A DNA stretch of 61,874 nt, filler included, from Theionarchaea archaeon (GTDB taxonomy: Archaea; Methanobacteriota_B; Thermococci; Methanofastidiosales; SZ-28-30), in the NCBI GenBank assembly GCA_018992565.1. It is 3 parts of 3 records of this genome, joined end to end, with 100 filler letters (N's around TTAATTAATTAA, not from the genome) between each part and the next. Parts side by side here need not be neighbours in the genome. Positions count along the whole stretch, not along the records: positions 1 to 23,295 come from JACVGW010000041.1; 2 more parts are not named here. One strand, written 5' to 3'. Numbering within the stretch: position 1 is the stretch's first letter; each line of letters opens with the position of its first letter. Made by a program: the position numbers. Positions 9,001 to 18,000 of this stretch are shown here, one piece after another.

Positions 9001-12000
9001 GCATTTACGTGGACTTTCCTCACCTCAAAAGCAGAATAATCAGGTCTAATGACTTCAATTTGTTTTTCCTTTTCTTCAATGAGAATTCTCACCAGAAATG
9101 TCTTTTCGTATTCTCTGCCAAACCGATCCTTGTACATTACCCTGATAGACCCTGAATATTCCCCAGGATCCCCATATACTATGATTTCTTTGGATGCCCT
9201 GCTGAGCAAGTAGCCTATGTAGCTTTCATACTGTACTTTAAGGTCTGAAAGAATCTCAAACCTGAAATCAATGGCAACTTCATCTGAATTCTTGAATCCA
9301 ATGATCACCCTGTCACCCAGAACATTAAGAGTGGCAGATTCAAGGCTGATGGATGGTTCTCCATTCTTGATCTTGATAGTGTAGATCTTCTTATCCTCAA
9401 GCGTCTGGCATACACCGCCTTGGCACGTTTTTGAAGTCACCAGGCATGTGTAGGAAATAGTAACCGGATATTCCCCGTCTTCAAGAGATCTACAATGGAA
9501 TGTGAAGGCTGCCGTCTGTGAACCATATGGTAAGCTCTCGATCCGTGCTGACTTGTTATAGAACATGAGATCATTGCTGCTGACCCGGATTTCAATTCCT
9601 TCCGCCATCTGTCCTGAGTTATTGGTGAAGGTTACATTCATCGTTCCTTTATCCTGTGATTCATACACCGGTTTATCTGTGGTTATCTGGAGGGTAAGAA
9701 TGTCATCTGCCAGCACTGGTCCAAGAGATCCCAGAACAAGGATCACCAGAAGGAACCATCTCATGCTGCGTTAATGGGACCCCTGATTTAAAAGACTTGT
9801 GGTCATGAACGAAAGGCCGAATCTGTGCTTTGCCTAGAAGTCAAACAGAGAAGACTGCTTTGAGCAAAAAAAGGAAGGCAGGGTTCTACCGACACTCTGA
9901 CCATGGAAATATCTTTCTGGCCACCCATACAATAAAGGCAGGAACAGCTCCCCCGTGGCCCCCGGCAAGCACTATGGGCCCAATACTGAGAATCTGTTCC
10001 TCTTCTGTCTGCTTGGGAGCAGATTGCGTCTTTTCAGACTGCACTAATATCACCTTTATTCTCTCTTAGTTTTCCTCTTCAGCCGGATTCTCTTCTTCAC
10101 TCGAACCCACTTCTTCTTGGGTCTGACCTTTATGTTGGGTGATTTCCTTAAAGGTCTGCGTTTTCTGTCTTTTCGTGATCCCATAATCCCACATTTTTTA
10201 GAACCATATAAAGGTTATGCAAGTCTTTTTCAATGAATCGAATCAGATTCACCTGATTGCACCCTGATAATAGAGGAGGGTAAAAGCAATTAGAGAAAAT
10301 CTCAAAGAAAGTAAAAAAAATAGTTATAGAAAGCTGCACTATCCGATTCAGCCACCCTACGCGTAGATTTCCATCTTTCCACCAGTGGAAGCAACGCAGG
10401 TAGCGTCCAGGTAGTCTTCAACTCGGGGTTCCATCGTTCTCACCTCCTGTACAGTGATTATACAACATATTTCTTTGAGTTATTAAGCTTTTTGGTGCGT
10501 TCGGAGTATGATGCACCACGTGGGAGGTATTAACCCGAACTCTGTTACGGATAAGGGATAAGCAGAGAGATACGTCAAGGAACGCTCTTTCAAAAAAGAA
10601 ATAAAAGAAAAATATGGTATGTCAGGTCTTGTTCTTTCTACTCCCGGCTTAGAGGTACTCCATCTTTCCACCAGTGGAAGCAACGCAGGTAGCGTCCAGG
10701 TAGTCTTCAACTCGGGGTTCCATCGTTCTCACCTCCTGTACAGTGATTGTTGAGTATATTCTTCTAAGTTATTAAGCTTTTTGGTGGTAATACATGTACA
10801 CATTTAAATAAGAAAAATTTCATTTCTACTCTATAAAATAGAGCAATATTATATTTATCTACACTTCAGAGTCACAGAAGAAAGAACATCATCAATGAAA
10901 TCTCTCTCAGCATAGGTTGATCTCTAGGGGACCACGAATATCTGTGAAGAACCGGTGTATGTTTTTTGGCTCAGGAAAAGCGGTAGTAGGCCCCATCCAC
11001 CCGACATGTGCCTGCTAAAGAGTGTCTGGATGATACAGACAATAGGGATCAGGTTCTTCAAAAGCTCCTCTCACCATATGTGCCGCAGCAATACATCCTC
11101 CACCGCACTCTGTTACATATGTGCACGTCGCACACTTTCCTCCTGTGATCACTGCGTCCCGTGCTCTCTGCAGCAGTGAGGATGTCTCCCACATGCACTT
11201 GAACCCCTCTTTCGCCACAGACTCATCCTGTATCGTGATGTAGGGGCAGGGAGTGATATTCCCTTCTGCAGTTATGGAACAGACCTGGACTCCCGCGGGG
11301 CATCTACGCCCTGCTTGTTCAGAAAAATCAAAAGCTTCTTCAATCTCGTAGTGAAGTCCCTTTTTATCGTATTGACTGCGGTTCCGTGCGTACCCTATGA
11401 TAATGGGGTTCAGTATGGTAGGATCTGGCAAGTGCTCATCGTTCTCCTTCCTGGGTATATATCTGCGAATATGGGCCAGGACTAGTCCCTGCTCATGCGC
11501 CCACTCTGGAAAAGAGGGGGCCTGGTGTATGTTATGGCTCATGGGCATGAATGACACAAAAGCTCGTATCTCAAGGTCTCTCAGCATGGCAAGAGTGTCA
11601 AGCAGTGTATCAAATGATCCAGGGATCCCTGTAATTGCATCATGGGTGTCTGAAGTGATGCCAAACAGAGGAAGGTCAAGTGCACCTAGGTGCGCCTCTC
11701 TGAGGGCTTTTGCCCGGGACTCAGTGAGCAGCAGCCCGTTAGTCTGCACGAGACTCCAGACGGGGCGACCCCTAAGGTGGATTAGAAGCTCCTCCAGCCC
11801 TGAGTAGAGTAGTGGCTCGCCTCCTGTAAAATATATCTTAAATACTCTCTCTTCCACCAATTCATCAAGAATTCTCTTGGCAACCTCTACATCCAGAGAT
11901 ACATTCTCATTCCTTACGAGGCAGTGTGCGCAGTGAAGGTTGCACTTCCGGGTTACCTCCAGGTAGACTGTCAGGGGTGCTCTCATTCTTTTCCCGGAGT

Positions 12001-15000: not shown

Positions 15001-18000
15001 AGGTAAACATAGGTGGGGCTGGAGAACATCATATTACAGCCACCCGATGAGCTTCCGCTCATCCATATCCTTCAAGAAAGCATCCACCTGTTCTCTGACA
15101 TCTTCAAGTTCCTCTCCTTCTTTTTGTGAGAGTGTCTCTGCAATAGTGCTAACATCCATGGTTCCGTCACACATACTCCAGATGAGAAATCCATCTTTGT
15201 TCAGTTTGTGCATCCGTCCTGCCCCGGGATCAAAGATGATAGCTCCAAAATCCTCCTCTCTACAGATCACATCTTCTCGCTGTTTTGGGATCATTCACTC
15301 ACCTTTGGGGGATTTGCAGGTAGAACAAAGTGTAGCATGATGATGGTAGCGACGACCATGGCAGCGCACAGGAAGAAGGGTACGCGCAGGCTGGTGAGTC
15401 CTCCTACGGCAGAGCCCAGTATAGGGCCAACCATAGATCCAATGCTGCAAACGCAGATGACTGCTCCGCTGGCAGTTCCCCTCTGTGATGAGACTGTCAC
15501 ATCACCAATAAGACTGTAAGCAACAGTAGCATATGGGGCAGCTCCTATGCCCACCAGCATGTAGCTGATAAAGAACATGAGGGGATTGACAGACAGGCCC
15601 GCCAAAGACACACCCACTACATAGATGAACAGGGGGTATATCAAGAGGCGCTTTCTCCCTAGCCGGTCTGACATGGTACCTGCCACAAATTGGGAAACAG
15701 CATACAGAATACCCAGTGAGGTGCCCAGGATTCCCAGCATTGTGTACGTCATGCCCAGCTCTTCTACAGCAAATATGCTCATGATGGGAGTGAGAATCCC
15801 ACTGGCGAAGTAAAGCATACCAAACATCAACAGGACTGTAAGGAAGACCAGGTTGCCCACGAGTTCTCTTGTGGGAAGCCTCATTTTCTGAACAGTAAAT
15901 CCTGTCCCCAGTTCTCTGAATTGAACGAGGAAGAAGACTGCCGCTATCATGGGAAAAATTGTACCCACATAGAATAACGGGTTAAAGCTCCCAGTAGAGT
16001 CTCTTATTACACCTCCCACCGTAGGTGCAGCCATGCTGGCCAGCGTCGTGAGCAACGCAAACGTGCCCAGTGCTTGTCCTCTATTCTCCTCTGTGGTCTT
16101 GTCCATTACATATGCGCGCGCAATAGGAAAGATGAATCCTATGATTCCTCCATGTGCTGCCCTCAAGAGCAAGAGCTGTGTTGTGGTGTGGGCCAGGGTA
16201 TACGAGAATACTATCCCTCCCAATAAGAACAAGCTCAGCGTAATGAGGTTTCTGCCAATCCTGTCTGAAATGTATCCTGCAGGCAGGGAAATCAGCGCAT
16301 TAAACAGAGAGTAGACAAGTGCAAAAGCACCCAGTTGCACCACAGGGACACCAAAGTCCTTGAGGAAAAGGTACAGGAATGCGCCGTAGATCTGTTCCCC
16401 AAAGAGCACCAGTGACATGACAATGCTGAACAGCAGAATCAGAGCTTCTACTCGAATCAGATCAGAAAATCTCTTCTTGAGTCTACTTATTCCTTCATCT
16501 ATTATCATAGGTTAACCCTCCGTGTTGTTCAGAAAAAGGAGGAGCAGAACATGGAAGAAATGCGTGCCATAGAGCATCATGACAACGAGGTTGGCATATC
16601 TGCGGAAGAACACGCGTGCGTGAAAGGGGTTGAGATCCATGATATTCCACGTTTCCACCTCCAGTATGTAGTGCTCCTTCACTTCTTCTGCTTTCTTTAT
16701 AAATATTTCGAGCTGCTGAATGTGTGCAGCACAAACTAGATAACCTTCTGTATCTTAACATGTTTTTGAGCAGGCACAAACCCCAGTTCCTTGAGAAGGG
16801 TTCGCTCAGGGAGATTATCTTCCATTACCATGTAGTCCAGAATGTATTCTGCATTCCACTTTCTCATCTCTTGCAGCATTTCAACATACAGAGCAGACCC
16901 AATCCCCATACCTCTGAATTCCTTGAGAACACCGTTGTTCAGGACCCTGCCCACAACCCTGTTCTTATTAAACACCTTCTGAAATGATATAAGAGCTCCA
17001 ATGAAGCCTGCTGGCACCTCCTTCACTTCTGCAAATATCCACACCCCAATCATGTGTCTCTGGCCCTGGTACATGACAGAATCCAGATGTTCCTCATGGA
17101 TTTGAGACATGTTGGGGATTTCAGCGCTGATCTCATTGACCAGAGCAGTATATGTCTTGATATCTTCTCTCAGGTTTTTTGATATACGTAAGTCTACCTT
17201 CTCTTTTGTTTTTTTGTAATAACCAAGCATGAGTTCAGTGATGGGGAGAGATCCTTCTCTGATGAATGTGTCTTCCTTATACAGTTCCTGGTATCCTTTT
17301 TCTTTGAACAGAACGACAAACCGCGAATTGAAATCAGCTATCCGCGTGGTGATCCTGGTAACCCCTTTCTGAGCCAGTACAGTCTCGCATTCCTGCAGCA
17401 GTTCGTCCTCAATTTTCCCACGATATGGTGTGGCAATCCACAAATCCAGCCAGTACGTATCTCCAAGAAAGCAGCTTCTCTTGCCAGGCGCTATTCGAGT
17501 GGTGAATCCTGCCTGGACATTGTCATTCTCTTCCACAACCCAGTAGGTTCTTTCTGTTCCATCGGGTACTGGTTTGTTCATATCGATTTCACTGACAGGT
17601 GCACAGACATCTCCGTGCTCCCACTCTTTCTGGCAGTATTCTGCCCACTGGGGCTGTTCCTGCACACGAAGTCCTCTTACCTCCACTATTTCACCACCTC
17701 CTCCATGTACTCAGTTTCGGGAATTTCAAGTTCCACATGAGCGGAATTCTCTGGAATGTCATATTCATCCAGGAAGAAGGCAAACAGAAGGATATCCTTG
17801 CCATCAACAGTATGTTTTCTCAGACAGCCCTCATACGTATAACCAAGGAAATTCAAAAGAGATACCATCATGGGGTTCCTACCAATAACAGAATCAGTGA
17901 CTTTATTCCTACCTTCTGCCTTAAACACCTTTAGAGCTGCAATATACAAATTGGTACCTATTTCATGCCCTCTACATTCTCTATCAACCACAATGACCCC

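Follow-up and report, generated by a model that had tools for sequence, protein, structure and literature searches.

An operon in an uncultured theionarchaeon places a transporter, a peptide chaperone and four radical-SAM/SPASM enzymes directly upstream of two ORFs of 24 and 25 codons that gene calling had passed over. The locus raises the question of whether these ORFs are genes, whether they belong with the operon, and what the enzymes would make of them. An earlier note had read the arrangement as a new class of ribosomal peptide natural products (RiPPs). Here we analysed the window, a stretch of 61,874 nucleotides (filler included), together with its genome (G000), related genomes and metagenome contigs.

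A family of very short peptide genes

Both ORFs reported previously are present, directly downstream of the operon (11015-16508), and each is accompanied by candidate expression signals:

10357..10434, minus strand: precursor-like peptide gene A, 25 aa, MEPRVEDYLDATCVASTGGKMEIYA; profile match E=3.5e-16
10649..10723, minus strand: precursor-like peptide gene B, 24 aa, MEPRVEDYLDATCVASTGGKMEYL; profile match E=7.3e-16
10441..10447, minus strand: GGAGGTG ribosome-binding box of gene A, 6 nt ahead of the ATG
10730..10736, minus strand: GGAGGTG ribosome-binding box of gene B, 6 nt ahead of the ATG
10479..10493, minus strand: BRE/TATA-like box AAAAAGCTTAATAAC, putative promoter of gene A
10768..10782, minus strand: BRE/TATA-like box AAAAAGCTTAATAAC, putative promoter of gene B
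10313..10320, minus strand: T8 run past the gene A stop, putative oligo-T terminator
10592..10612 (10592-10597 and 10608-10612), minus strand: T6 and T5 runs past the gene B stop, putative terminator

Genes A and B are tandem duplicates and diverge no earlier than codon 22, and the AAAAAGCTTAATAAC boxes lie ∼45-59 nt upstream of both. A six-frame scan of all 154 contigs found nine copies in the genome, on contigs C119 (two), C47 (four), C143, C33 and C79; a profile built from 70 family members recovered the same set, exactly the nine paralogues on five contigs claimed before.

From this genome, one congener and 57 metagenome contigs (several of which represent one organism from different samples) we collected 70 distinct peptides of 23-29 aa, encoded by 5-12 genes per genome. 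All share the consensus M-x-P-x-[VI]-EDY-x-D-x-TCVAS-[ST]GG, followed by a hypervariable tail. The search patterns forced E, D, Y, D, T, C, A and S and allowed V or A at position 14, so that, as the earlier note had cautioned, the invariance of these residues across the metagenome set arises partly by construction. Yet two residues left free are also kept: Pro3 in 72/72 genes, through four synonymous codons, and Gly18 in 67/72, through two. The tails comprise 4-10 residues and end in variable C-termini, and every one contains the Met that had been proposed (70/70, versus 9.6 expected). Among paralogues within a genome, DNA conservation is 0.84 in the core, 0.70 and 0.63 in the non-coding flanks, and 0.51 in the tail.

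The expression signals ascribed to each copy extend nearly family-wide. When the distinct gene copies of every source are pooled, an SD-like box precedes 71 of 72, with the ATG fixed behind it; a run of at least four T lies within 60 nt past the stop in 72/72 (at least five T in 70/72); and an A-rich/TTTATA-type box peaks at -53 to -51 relative to the ATG. In nearly all family genes the BRE/TATA-like box, GGAGGTG and the T-run are found together. A search of RNA runs found none containing the locus. Across 41 related genomes a reversed pattern gave two matches, whereas the real pattern gave 17, in two genomes only, and profile searches of the relatives' genomes detected no divergent members. 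All named relatives are 'Theionarchaea archaeon' MAGs, in line with the suggested confinement to uncultured Theionarchaea, which are archaea of sediments, and our literature search found no paper describing the family. Judged by these sequence patterns, the small ORFs are a genuine gene family under selection.

The operon and its tie to the peptides

The operon upstream of the peptide genes has the composition described previously:

15291..16508, minus strand: MFS transporter, 405 aa, putative exporter; Pfam MFS_1 E=9.9e-53
15034..15294, minus strand: stand-alone PqqD-family peptide chaperone (RRE), 86 aa; Pfam PF05402 E=4.8e-14
14061..15032, minus strand: rSAM1, radical-SAM/SPASM, 323 aa, CAACALEC; Pfam and Cys motifs
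13019..14014, minus strand: rSAM2, radical-SAM/SPASM, 331 aa, CNLSCRHC; Pfam and Cys motifs
12019..13032, minus strand: rSAM3, radical-SAM/SPASM, ∼335-337 aa (start 13032 or 13026), CNLNCRHC; Pfam and Cys motifs
11015..12022, minus strand: rSAM4, radical-SAM/SPASM, 335 aa (ATG start at 12022), CNLHCAHC, no RRE domain; Pfam (radical SAM) and Cys motifs

The genes abut or overlap, and the PqqD start overlaps the MFS stop (ATGA), coupling PqqD translationally inside the operon. Pfam SPASM matches were obtained for three of the four rSAM proteins; SPASM was assigned to rSAM4 via its Cys motifs, which occur in all four. Each orthogroup retains its motifs in every operon version (nine sequences each), including the CX2CX3C motif (CAACALEC) that had been noticed in rSAM1 in place of CX3CX2C and is kept in 8/8 full-length orthologues. 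Because rSAM1-4 begin 16-20 residues ahead of the cluster motif, they have no RRE of their own.

Presence and position both connect the peptides with this operon. Among the 41 related genomes an orthologous operon occurs only in G000 and G002 (four tandem rSAMs, rSAM3 67% identical). Pattern and profile searches found nine peptides in G000, eight in G002 and none in the other 39, such that peptides and operon are together in two genomes and both absent from 39. In G002 a peptide gene lies 240 nt past rSAM4 of a syntenic GNAT-GNAT-MFS-PqqD-4x rSAM block. The 57 metagenome contigs were retrieved using the peptide pattern alone, and in seven of them, representing five distinct versions, the complete operon stands beside a peptide, within 8 kb; by our own arithmetic chance alone would give ∼0.3 for a single locus in a genome of 2.8 Mb. 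On one contig peptides lie ahead of MFS, between rSAM1 and rSAM2, and past rSAM4. With adjacency conserved across seven distinct operon versions, whose proteins share 56-70% identity, and with the presence/absence pattern across 41 genomes, the evidence is strong that the peptide family is tied genetically to the operon.

The borders proposed earlier, 10357..16508, proved too narrow, since two genes upstream share the phyletic pattern of the system and, in other lineages, lie within the block that the peptide genes flank:

16736..17686, minus strand: GNAT2, double-GNAT acetyltransferase, 316 aa, probable accessory gene
17686..18213, minus strand: GNAT1, acetyltransferase, 175 aa, probable accessory gene

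GNAT1 is 79-83% identical to its counterparts in other operon lineages, and by these comparisons the pair (16736-18213) is probably part of the system.

Enzyme relationships and a proposed pathway

No operon enzyme reached an NCBIfam equivalog cut-off, as had been reported. The top models for all four rSAMs were AhbD/NirJ/NirJ2, at 89-218 bits against cut-offs of 500-650. The closest solved structures were the peptide modifiers PqqE and SkfB for rSAM2-4 (E=2e-25 to 2e-10), and BlsE and SkfB for rSAM1 (∼1e-7 to 1e-6). The NCBIfam cassettes SynChlorMet (ScmD/E/F) and GeoRSP (curated, uncharacterised) likewise join several rSAM/SPASM genes to one PqqD-family protein, and ScmD is the top model for PqqD here, but the scores fall short (ScmD 38.5 versus 100; ScmE/F at most 119 versus 400; GeoRSP rSAM at most 182 versus 400). 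On this evidence the operon enzymes belong to no curated family.

Pairing a PqqD-type chaperone with rSAM/SPASM enzymes that lack an RRE is the usual scheme for making a RiPP or a peptide-derived cofactor. We consider it probable that the locus encodes a RiPP-type maturation system with the peptides as its ribosomal precursors. The 23-29-residue peptides, each copy presumably on its own short transcription unit, would be bound by PqqD through the invariant N-terminal part and passed successively to the four enzymes, which would introduce cross-links by radical chemistry or functionalise C-H bonds in other ways. The product would then be exported by the MFS protein, and the GNAT pair might acetylate it or shield the producer. 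The earlier note had the four enzymes act on an invariant 12-residue core while the tail diversifies. The opposite layout would fit the data at least as well, in which the invariant N-terminal 19 residues serve as leader or PqqD-binding segment and the Met tail is modified, perhaps together with Cys13.

The sactipeptide SKF offers a comparison, SkfB being the best or second-best solved structure for rSAM2 and rSAM3. SKF differs from the present cluster in its precursor of 55 aa, its protease and its ABC exporter, and the SkfB NCBIfam model scores 99 bits here against a cut-off of 300. For SKF, the review PMC8172795 describes an alpha-carbon thioether between Cys4 and Met12, and an N-terminal RRE and a twitch-type auxiliary domain in SkfB itself. 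In the present system, by contrast, the SPASM motifs of the enzymes are complete, PqqD is a protein apart, and a Cys-Met thioether is putative. The same spacing (i+8) is found in 41/70 peptides here, all of which contain Cys and Met; from this we tentatively guess that the single Cys13 might donate the sulfur of a thioether to Met, the one invariant residue of the tail, although we regard this as rather doubtful. A second cross-link might lie at Tyr8/Glu6.

No protease gene lies in the cluster, nor did the genome (88% complete) yield a C39 peptidase; a search for PqqC gave no match, with the control of the same search likewise matching nowhere. The whole genome holds 19 PqqD and 36 SPASM matches. 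A PqqD-fused rSAM lies 2.5 kb away from the C47 peptide array, and this or another PqqD/SPASM system of the genome could take part.

Known systems and alternative readings

The peptides might instead be sacrificial precursors of a PQQ- or mycofactocin-like cofactor or small molecule: the rSAMs would cross-link the invariant segment (e.g. Glu6/Tyr8 or Thr12/Cys13), the remainder would be lost, and having many copies, strongly expressed, would just provide stoichiometric substrate. We judge this unlikely, although the architecture is that of PqqA/PqqD/PqqE and MftA/MftB/MftC (a peptide below 30 aa, a stand-alone PqqD-type chaperone of family PF05402, an RRE-less rSAM/SPASM enzyme), a strictly invariant E-D-Y segment with a variable remainder agrees with it, and MftC (190 bits for rSAM3 versus a cut-off of 265) and PqqE, the closest solved structure for rSAM3 and rSAM4, are among the better matches. 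However, no equivalog cut-off is reached (PqqE at best 146 versus 381, PqqD 33 versus 46). The invariant segment contains Glu and Tyr as E-x-Y, whereas PqqA has E-x3-Y, and the variable C-termini lack the Gly-Val-Tyr of MftA. There are four rSAMs rather than one, the cluster is without PqqB/C/F partners or other peptidase or oxidase genes, no MftD/E/F-like genes lie nearby, and the hosts are anaerobic archaea with hypervariable multi-copy precursors. Moreover, the universal tail Met and a tail that diverges more than non-coding flanks suggest that the tail matters, and the MFS gene suggests export.

That the peptides are independent small proteins (regulatory, metal-binding or toxin-like), adjacent to the operon through shared mobility or regulation only, seems distinctly improbable. 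As the earlier note conceded, most copies are distant from the enzymes (7/9 in G000, beside housekeeping genes); their contexts are not conserved, and on metagenome contigs some have an integrase, RadC or multi-copy genes close by. Against this, peptides occur in 2/2 operon genomes and 0/39 without it, and adjacency is maintained across the diverged operon versions. Scattered precursors served by a single maturase locus are also known: prochlorosins have many, with a conserved leader and a hypervariable core. The present genes resemble them in number, in their distance from the enzymes and in a conserved N-terminus with a hypervariable C-terminus, but differ in using radical SAM enzymes rather than a lanthionine synthetase, in their archaeal host and in much shorter variable parts.

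There is very little chance that the substrate of the four enzymes is something other than a peptide, such as a tetrapyrrole (cf. AhbC/AhbD/NirJ), with the peptides as unrelated neighbours. AhbD/NirJ-type models do lead for all four, and sets of several such paralogues occur in the alternative heme and heme d1 pathways; however, the scores lie far below the cut-offs, AhbD is matched at the same generic level by 21 proteins of the genome (none above cut-off), PqqD is translationally coupled within the operon, and the peptides co-occur and interleave with it. Finally, that the ORFs are a non-coding repeat or chance ORFs, as being very short and missed by the gene finder might suggest, is next to inconceivable given the synonymous codons at residues free in the search, the fixed ATG, the uniform length of 23-29 codons, the lack of any Rfam match and the almost empty reversed-pattern control.

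Taken together, the selected gene family, its linkage to the operon and a set of enzymes and chaperone typical of peptide maturation speak for the RiPP reading; the wording 'new class', a chemical claim, does not carry over from the earlier interpretation. Under the RiPP reading, the hypervariable residues around Met would give every genome its own small library of related products, which would most likely act as signals or as antagonistic peptides. As far as sequence comparison can tell, the operon most likely makes modified peptides of a hitherto undescribed kind, and the system is a good lead for genome mining.

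The operon and its peptide genes

The locus is read from the minus strand of the window, in the following order of transcription:

17686-18213, minus strand: GNAT1, 175 aa, first in transcription order
16736-17686, minus strand: GNAT2, 316 aa
15291-16508, minus strand: MFS transporter, 405 aa
15034-15294, minus strand: stand-alone PqqD-family protein, 86 aa
14061-15032, minus strand: rSAM1, radical-SAM/SPASM protein
13019-14014, minus strand: rSAM2, radical-SAM/SPASM protein
12019-13032, minus strand: rSAM3, radical-SAM/SPASM protein
11015-12022, minus strand: rSAM4, radical-SAM/SPASM protein
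10649-10723, minus strand: peptide B, 24 aa
10357-10434, minus strand: peptide A, 25 aa, last in transcription order

The genes from MFS through rSAM4 overlap or nearly abut: MFS and PqqD share an ATGA overlap, gaps of 1 nt and 46 nt separate PqqD from rSAM1 and rSAM1 from rSAM2, and rSAM2/rSAM3 and rSAM3/rSAM4 are overlapping pairs. These genes therefore form one operon. A conserved small ORF was considered for the spacer between GNAT2 and MFS (16495-16735) and dropped, because this spacer is not conserved in any other lineage. The stretch 10200-16600 is present in 20 DNA runs from 7 studies, and no RNA run is listed with it. Just downstream of the peptides, a 292-aa protein (8886-9764, minus strand) has an N-terminal signal-like segment and a C-terminal membrane-anchor-like segment; it belongs to no Pfam or NCBIfam family, and its position next to the operon is not conserved in other lineages. 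The window is a chain of contigs, with runs of N at 23296-23395, 46520-46619 and 60578-60677, and positions 1-23295 alone come from the contig of the operon and the peptides.

Peptides A and B are a tandem duplicate, identical to about codon 22 and differing only in their final residues. Ahead of each ATG lie a AAAAAGCTTAATAAC box, at a distance of 45-59 nt, and GGAGGTG, at 6 nt; T-runs come after the stop. The earlier note had described nine such peptide genes in this genome, each with its own promoter-type box, Shine-Dalgarno sequence and T-rich end. A six-frame scan of the whole genome recovered exactly those nine, and the signals are seen in both window copies and family-wide: the Shine-Dalgarno box lies at a fixed distance in 71 of the 72 distinct genes, all 72 have a run of at least four T within 60 nt past the stop, and TTTATA-type boxes concentrate at -53 to -51. 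The T fraction of bases is 0.46 downstream of the genes versus 0.22 upstream.

The family was searched at the DNA level with a degenerate pattern for VEDYxDxTCVA, allowing at most two mismatches and using the reversed pattern as a control. Among 41 related genomes the pattern occurred at nine places in the window's own genome (G000), at eight in a different species of the same genus (G002) and at none in the other 39; the control gave two matches in total. A profile built from 70 family members returned the same counts, nine and eight at 51-60 bits with nothing weaker, and none in the 39 others. Scanning the genomes of 185,579 species for the exact motif gave a sole match, the record of G002 ("uncultured Thermococci archaeon"), in a collection from which the window's genome may be absent. 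Scanning a metagenome collection added 66 loci, which lie on 57 contigs. Together with the copies of G000 and G002 this makes 98 gene copies; they comprise 71 different coding sequences and encode 70 different peptides, each of 23-29 residues.

The search fixes E, D, Y, D, T, C, V/A, A and S/T, so the conservation of these residues in the metagenome set is partly by construction; the earlier note had cautioned that a pattern search forces part of the motif. Outside these fixed positions, every one of the 72 distinct genes has proline as its third residue, through four different codons, the Gly18 codon is GGT or GGC in 67 of 72, and the residue preceding E is Val or Ile, encoded by six codons. 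No Rfam family matched 9800-11100, and the peptides matched nothing in NCBIfam and nothing in Pfam at E<=10 except for a chance TGF_beta_GS match (E=0.18). Judged by their sequence features, the peptides are a family of real coding genes.

Linkage of the peptides to the operon

When the 41 related genomes were searched with rSAM3, the sole orthologue was found in G002 (67% identity), inside four tandem rSAM genes; the next-best matches were at most 40% identical, or partial. The same two genomes are the only ones with peptides. G001, of the same genus and 91% complete, and G003 have neither operon nor peptides. The order in G002 is GNAT-GNAT-MFS-PqqD followed by the four rSAM genes, with a peptide gene 240 nt past rSAM4.

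Moreover, 7 of the 57 metagenome contigs fished by the peptide alone carry a complete operon within 8 kb, in five distinct versions whose proteins are 53-68% identical to those of the window. By our own arithmetic, chance would give about 0.3 such contigs if the locus occurs once in a genome of 2.8 Mb. In one contig peptide genes precede MFS, separate rSAM1 from rSAM2 and follow rSAM4; in another, a peptide gene is upstream of GNAT1. Peptide genes flank the GNAT-to-rSAM4 block on both sides in one lineage, represented by two redundant contigs of which only the longer reaches both ends. Two contigs have a second MFS gene after a peptide. As these contigs were chosen via the peptide, finding a peptide with each operon is circular in their case; adjacency ascertained in another way rests on G000 and G002, and the corresponding test is the comparison of these two with the 39 other genomes. 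Together these data establish a genetic link between the short precursor-type genes and those of the maturases.

Eight operon contigs reach far enough to show the GNAT pair, and seven of them have it. GNAT1 keeps 79-83% identity across the other operon versions; a search detected it in G002 and in none of G001, G003, G004 and G006. On the strength of this identity, recurrence and occurrence pattern, we include the pair as probable accessory genes of the system; one operon version is without it, so it is not indispensable.

Orphan peptide loci show essentially no synteny between lineages. In several redundant metagenome contigs, a family of ~367-aa proteins with an HTH-looking N-terminus and no Pfam match lies 0.7-1.2 kb from orphan copies (locus L093, 1529-2632, minus strand, and relatives). 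It was rejected as a member of the system, because it is a multi-copy family and the contigs are redundant: G000 alone has ten tblastn matches on nine contigs (C111:431-1519, C147:58345-59433, C32:1050-2126 and seven weaker). The family could be mobile or have a regulatory role. Peptidases of secreted type (C25, M28 and C13/C14 caspase-like) are near some orphan copies, at loci L090:1821-4154 and L031:4708-6603 and at C79:5309-6823 in G000, all on the minus strand; each recurs in just one to four redundant contigs, and we therefore claim no link to the peptides.

Radical-SAM enzymes and the PqqD protein

The PqqD assignment, and with it the presence of a RiPP recognition element (RRE), is clear (PF05402, E=4.8e-14, 52.9 bits versus a cut-off of 23.4). 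With orthologue-supported starts, the Radical_SAM domain begins 16-20 residues from the N-terminus of rSAM1-4, so all of them lack an RRE domain. They share a GGEP motif and the full SPASM-type cysteine pattern (CX9-15GX4C ... CX2CX5CX3C-like ... C). The cluster motif of rSAM2-4 is the canonical CX3CX2C, as CNLxCxHC. That of rSAM1 reads C-x2-C-x3-C in the window and in all eight full-length orthologues (a ninth is truncated); the distance between its outer cysteines is the normal one, with the middle cysteine moved by one position.

As the earlier note had reported, none of the four enzymes exceeds an NCBIfam equivalog cut-off. MftC reached at most 190 against 265 and PqqE at most 146 against 381, and the PqqD equivalog gave 33 against 46. 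The best scores on models of sacti- and ranthi-synthases were likewise below the cut-offs (SkfB 99/300, StsB 126/625, PapB 89/340 and AlbA 80/850). Among solved structures, the best sequence matches were PqqE (6c8v) and SkfB (6efn) for rSAM2-4 and BlsE (7vob) for rSAM1.

rSAM3 is 38% identical to rSAM2. Its identity to rSAM1 or rSAM4, 29-32%, is no higher than to other rSAM/SPASM genes of the genome. By these identities the four are paralogues in the superfamily sense only. For rSAM1 there are 21 relatives (90% clusters) at 64-99% identity and no others above 26%; for rSAM3 there are 26 at 64-100%, one at 48% and no others above 38%. Every one of these relatives has the source name "Theionarchaea archaeon". 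The single intermediate, a 332-aa rSAM/SPASM protein (P0050) at 48% between the orthologues (>=64%) and all else (<=38%), may belong to a remoter form of the system whose peptide has diverged.

In its 2.8 Mb, G000 has 36 matches to SPASM and 19 to the PqqD domain, 17 of the latter over the cut-off. Matches to rSAM3 number 56 in G000, 44 in each of two congeners and 2-10 in other relatives. Several G000 loci pair PqqD with at least two rSAM genes (e.g. C24:31378-33646, C4:5673-12490, C110:19977-24433, C133:17759-20246 and C73:6439-7793). On contig C47, a 473-aa rSAM/SPASM protein that carries a PqqD domain fused at its N-terminus (L105; 9604-11025, plus strand) lies 2.5 kb from a four-copy peptide array; it is separated from the array by unrelated genes and does not recur near the peptide arrays of other lineages.

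Proposed chemistry and significance

The system combines a short precursor-type peptide with a stand-alone PqqD chaperone, rSAM/SPASM enzymes that lack an RRE, and a transporter, as PQQ, mycofactocin and many RiPP clusters do. From this shared layout we read the peptides as likely substrates of the enzymes, to which PqqD would present them. A prediction of the PqqD-peptide complex scored 0.61 versus 0.42 for the control, with a peptide of under 30 residues that falls outside the calibration of the tool.

The tail comprises the 4-10 residues after TCVAS-S/T-G-G, and 61 distinct tails occur among the 70 peptides. Every one contains Met (68 have one, two have two), where 9.6 would be expected from the genome Met frequency of 2.4%. 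Met lies eight residues past Cys13 in 41 of 70 peptides and is pushed further away by a Gly/Pro-rich insert in the remainder; two or three residues follow it in 48. Over 90 pairs of paralogues within one genome or contig, mean DNA identity was 0.70 in the 60 nt upstream, 0.84 in the core coding segment, 0.51 in the tail coding segment and 0.63 in the 60 nt downstream. The tail is thus actively diversified, or at least unconstrained save for Met and hydrophobic character.

In RiPPs the leader is usually conserved and the core variable. This rule, together with the tolerated Gly/Pro spacer before Met, leads us to suggest that residues 1-19 would mainly serve recognition and that the Met region, possibly with Cys13, would be worked on. 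The earlier note had proposed instead that the invariant 12 residues are the core. In double-glycine leader systems the C39 peptidase domain is usually on the exporter; the exporter gene here encodes an MFS protein. The cluster contains no protease and PF03412 (C39 peptidase) had no match in the 88%-complete genome (the control matched in 7 of 14 genomes), so the Gly-Gly of the peptides is probably not a classical double-glycine site. By analogy with SKF, which carries a Cys4-Met12 link (PMC8172795), the one invariant cysteine, Cys13, could form a thioether to Met, with the i+8 spacing in common; we regard this particular linkage as rather doubtful.

Among other explanations, the most durable is that the peptides are a cofactor precursor. 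The architecture fits, but Met is always kept, the tails are diversified and an exporter is present, which makes it improbable. PqqA has the motif E-x3-Y, in contrast to E-D-Y here, and the cluster has no pqqB or pqqC partner (a genome-wide PqqC search had no match, but its control matched nowhere either); the mycofactocin precursor ends in Val-Tyr, whereas the C-termini here vary. That the peptides are independent small proteins is very improbable given their co-occurrence with the operon, as both operon genomes have peptides versus 0 of the 39 without it. A tetrapyrrole-type role of the enzymes is less probable still: AhbD, NirJ2 and NirJ are their best NCBIfam models, but rSAM1-4 score 89-218 bits on the AhbC, AhbD, NirJ, NirJ1 and NirJ2 equivalogs versus cut-offs of 500-650, 21 proteins of the genome match AhbD at a similar generic level with none over the cut-off, and the operon includes a PqqD gene. 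The codon evidence leaves a negligible chance that the ORFs are non-genes.

Beyond reading the peptides as substrates, we tentatively raise the possibility of a chemically new archaeal RiPP class, in which one RRE would serve four rSAM/SPASM enzymes, one of them with the CX2CX3C cluster motif, to install several cross-links. At least one cross-link would be of an undescribed type, involving for example the Met found in every tail or the E-D-Y residues. Few known precursors would be as short as these substrates, and the resulting library of 5-12 products per genome could act as signals or weapons in anoxic sediments.

To our knowledge, hardly any archaeal RiPPs have been characterised. Full-text literature searches returned no description of this system and nothing joining Theionarchaea with RiPP, PqqD or SPASM topics. 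In the part of its text that was accessible, a survey of archaeal RiPP clusters covers predicted rSAM RiPPs in general terms only, with products unknown (PMC12144867), and a report on Cys-rich proteins in Methanococcus concerns a different system (PMC13692751). A compendium of RRE-associated rSAM enzymes has a supplemental dataset that might list these proteins (PMC10288494). Peptide maturation by radical-SAM/SPASM enzymes together with an RRE is well known in kind. What is new is the precursor family, the very short and library-like nature of its members, the combination of one chaperone with a fixed set of four enzymes, the CX2CX3C enzyme and the archaeal host; the status of a new RiPP class depends on the chemistry.

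Looking forward, what is now known of the precursor family, the enzymes and their linkage suffices for direct testing, which is eased by peptides short enough for synthesis, four compact enzymes with one chaperone and seven natural operon versions. RiPP-type machinery is unusually abundant in the host lineage. New radical cross-linking chemistry could emerge from the system, which could also reveal how one RRE serves several enzymes and exemplify library-type peptide diversification in uncultured sediment archaea.
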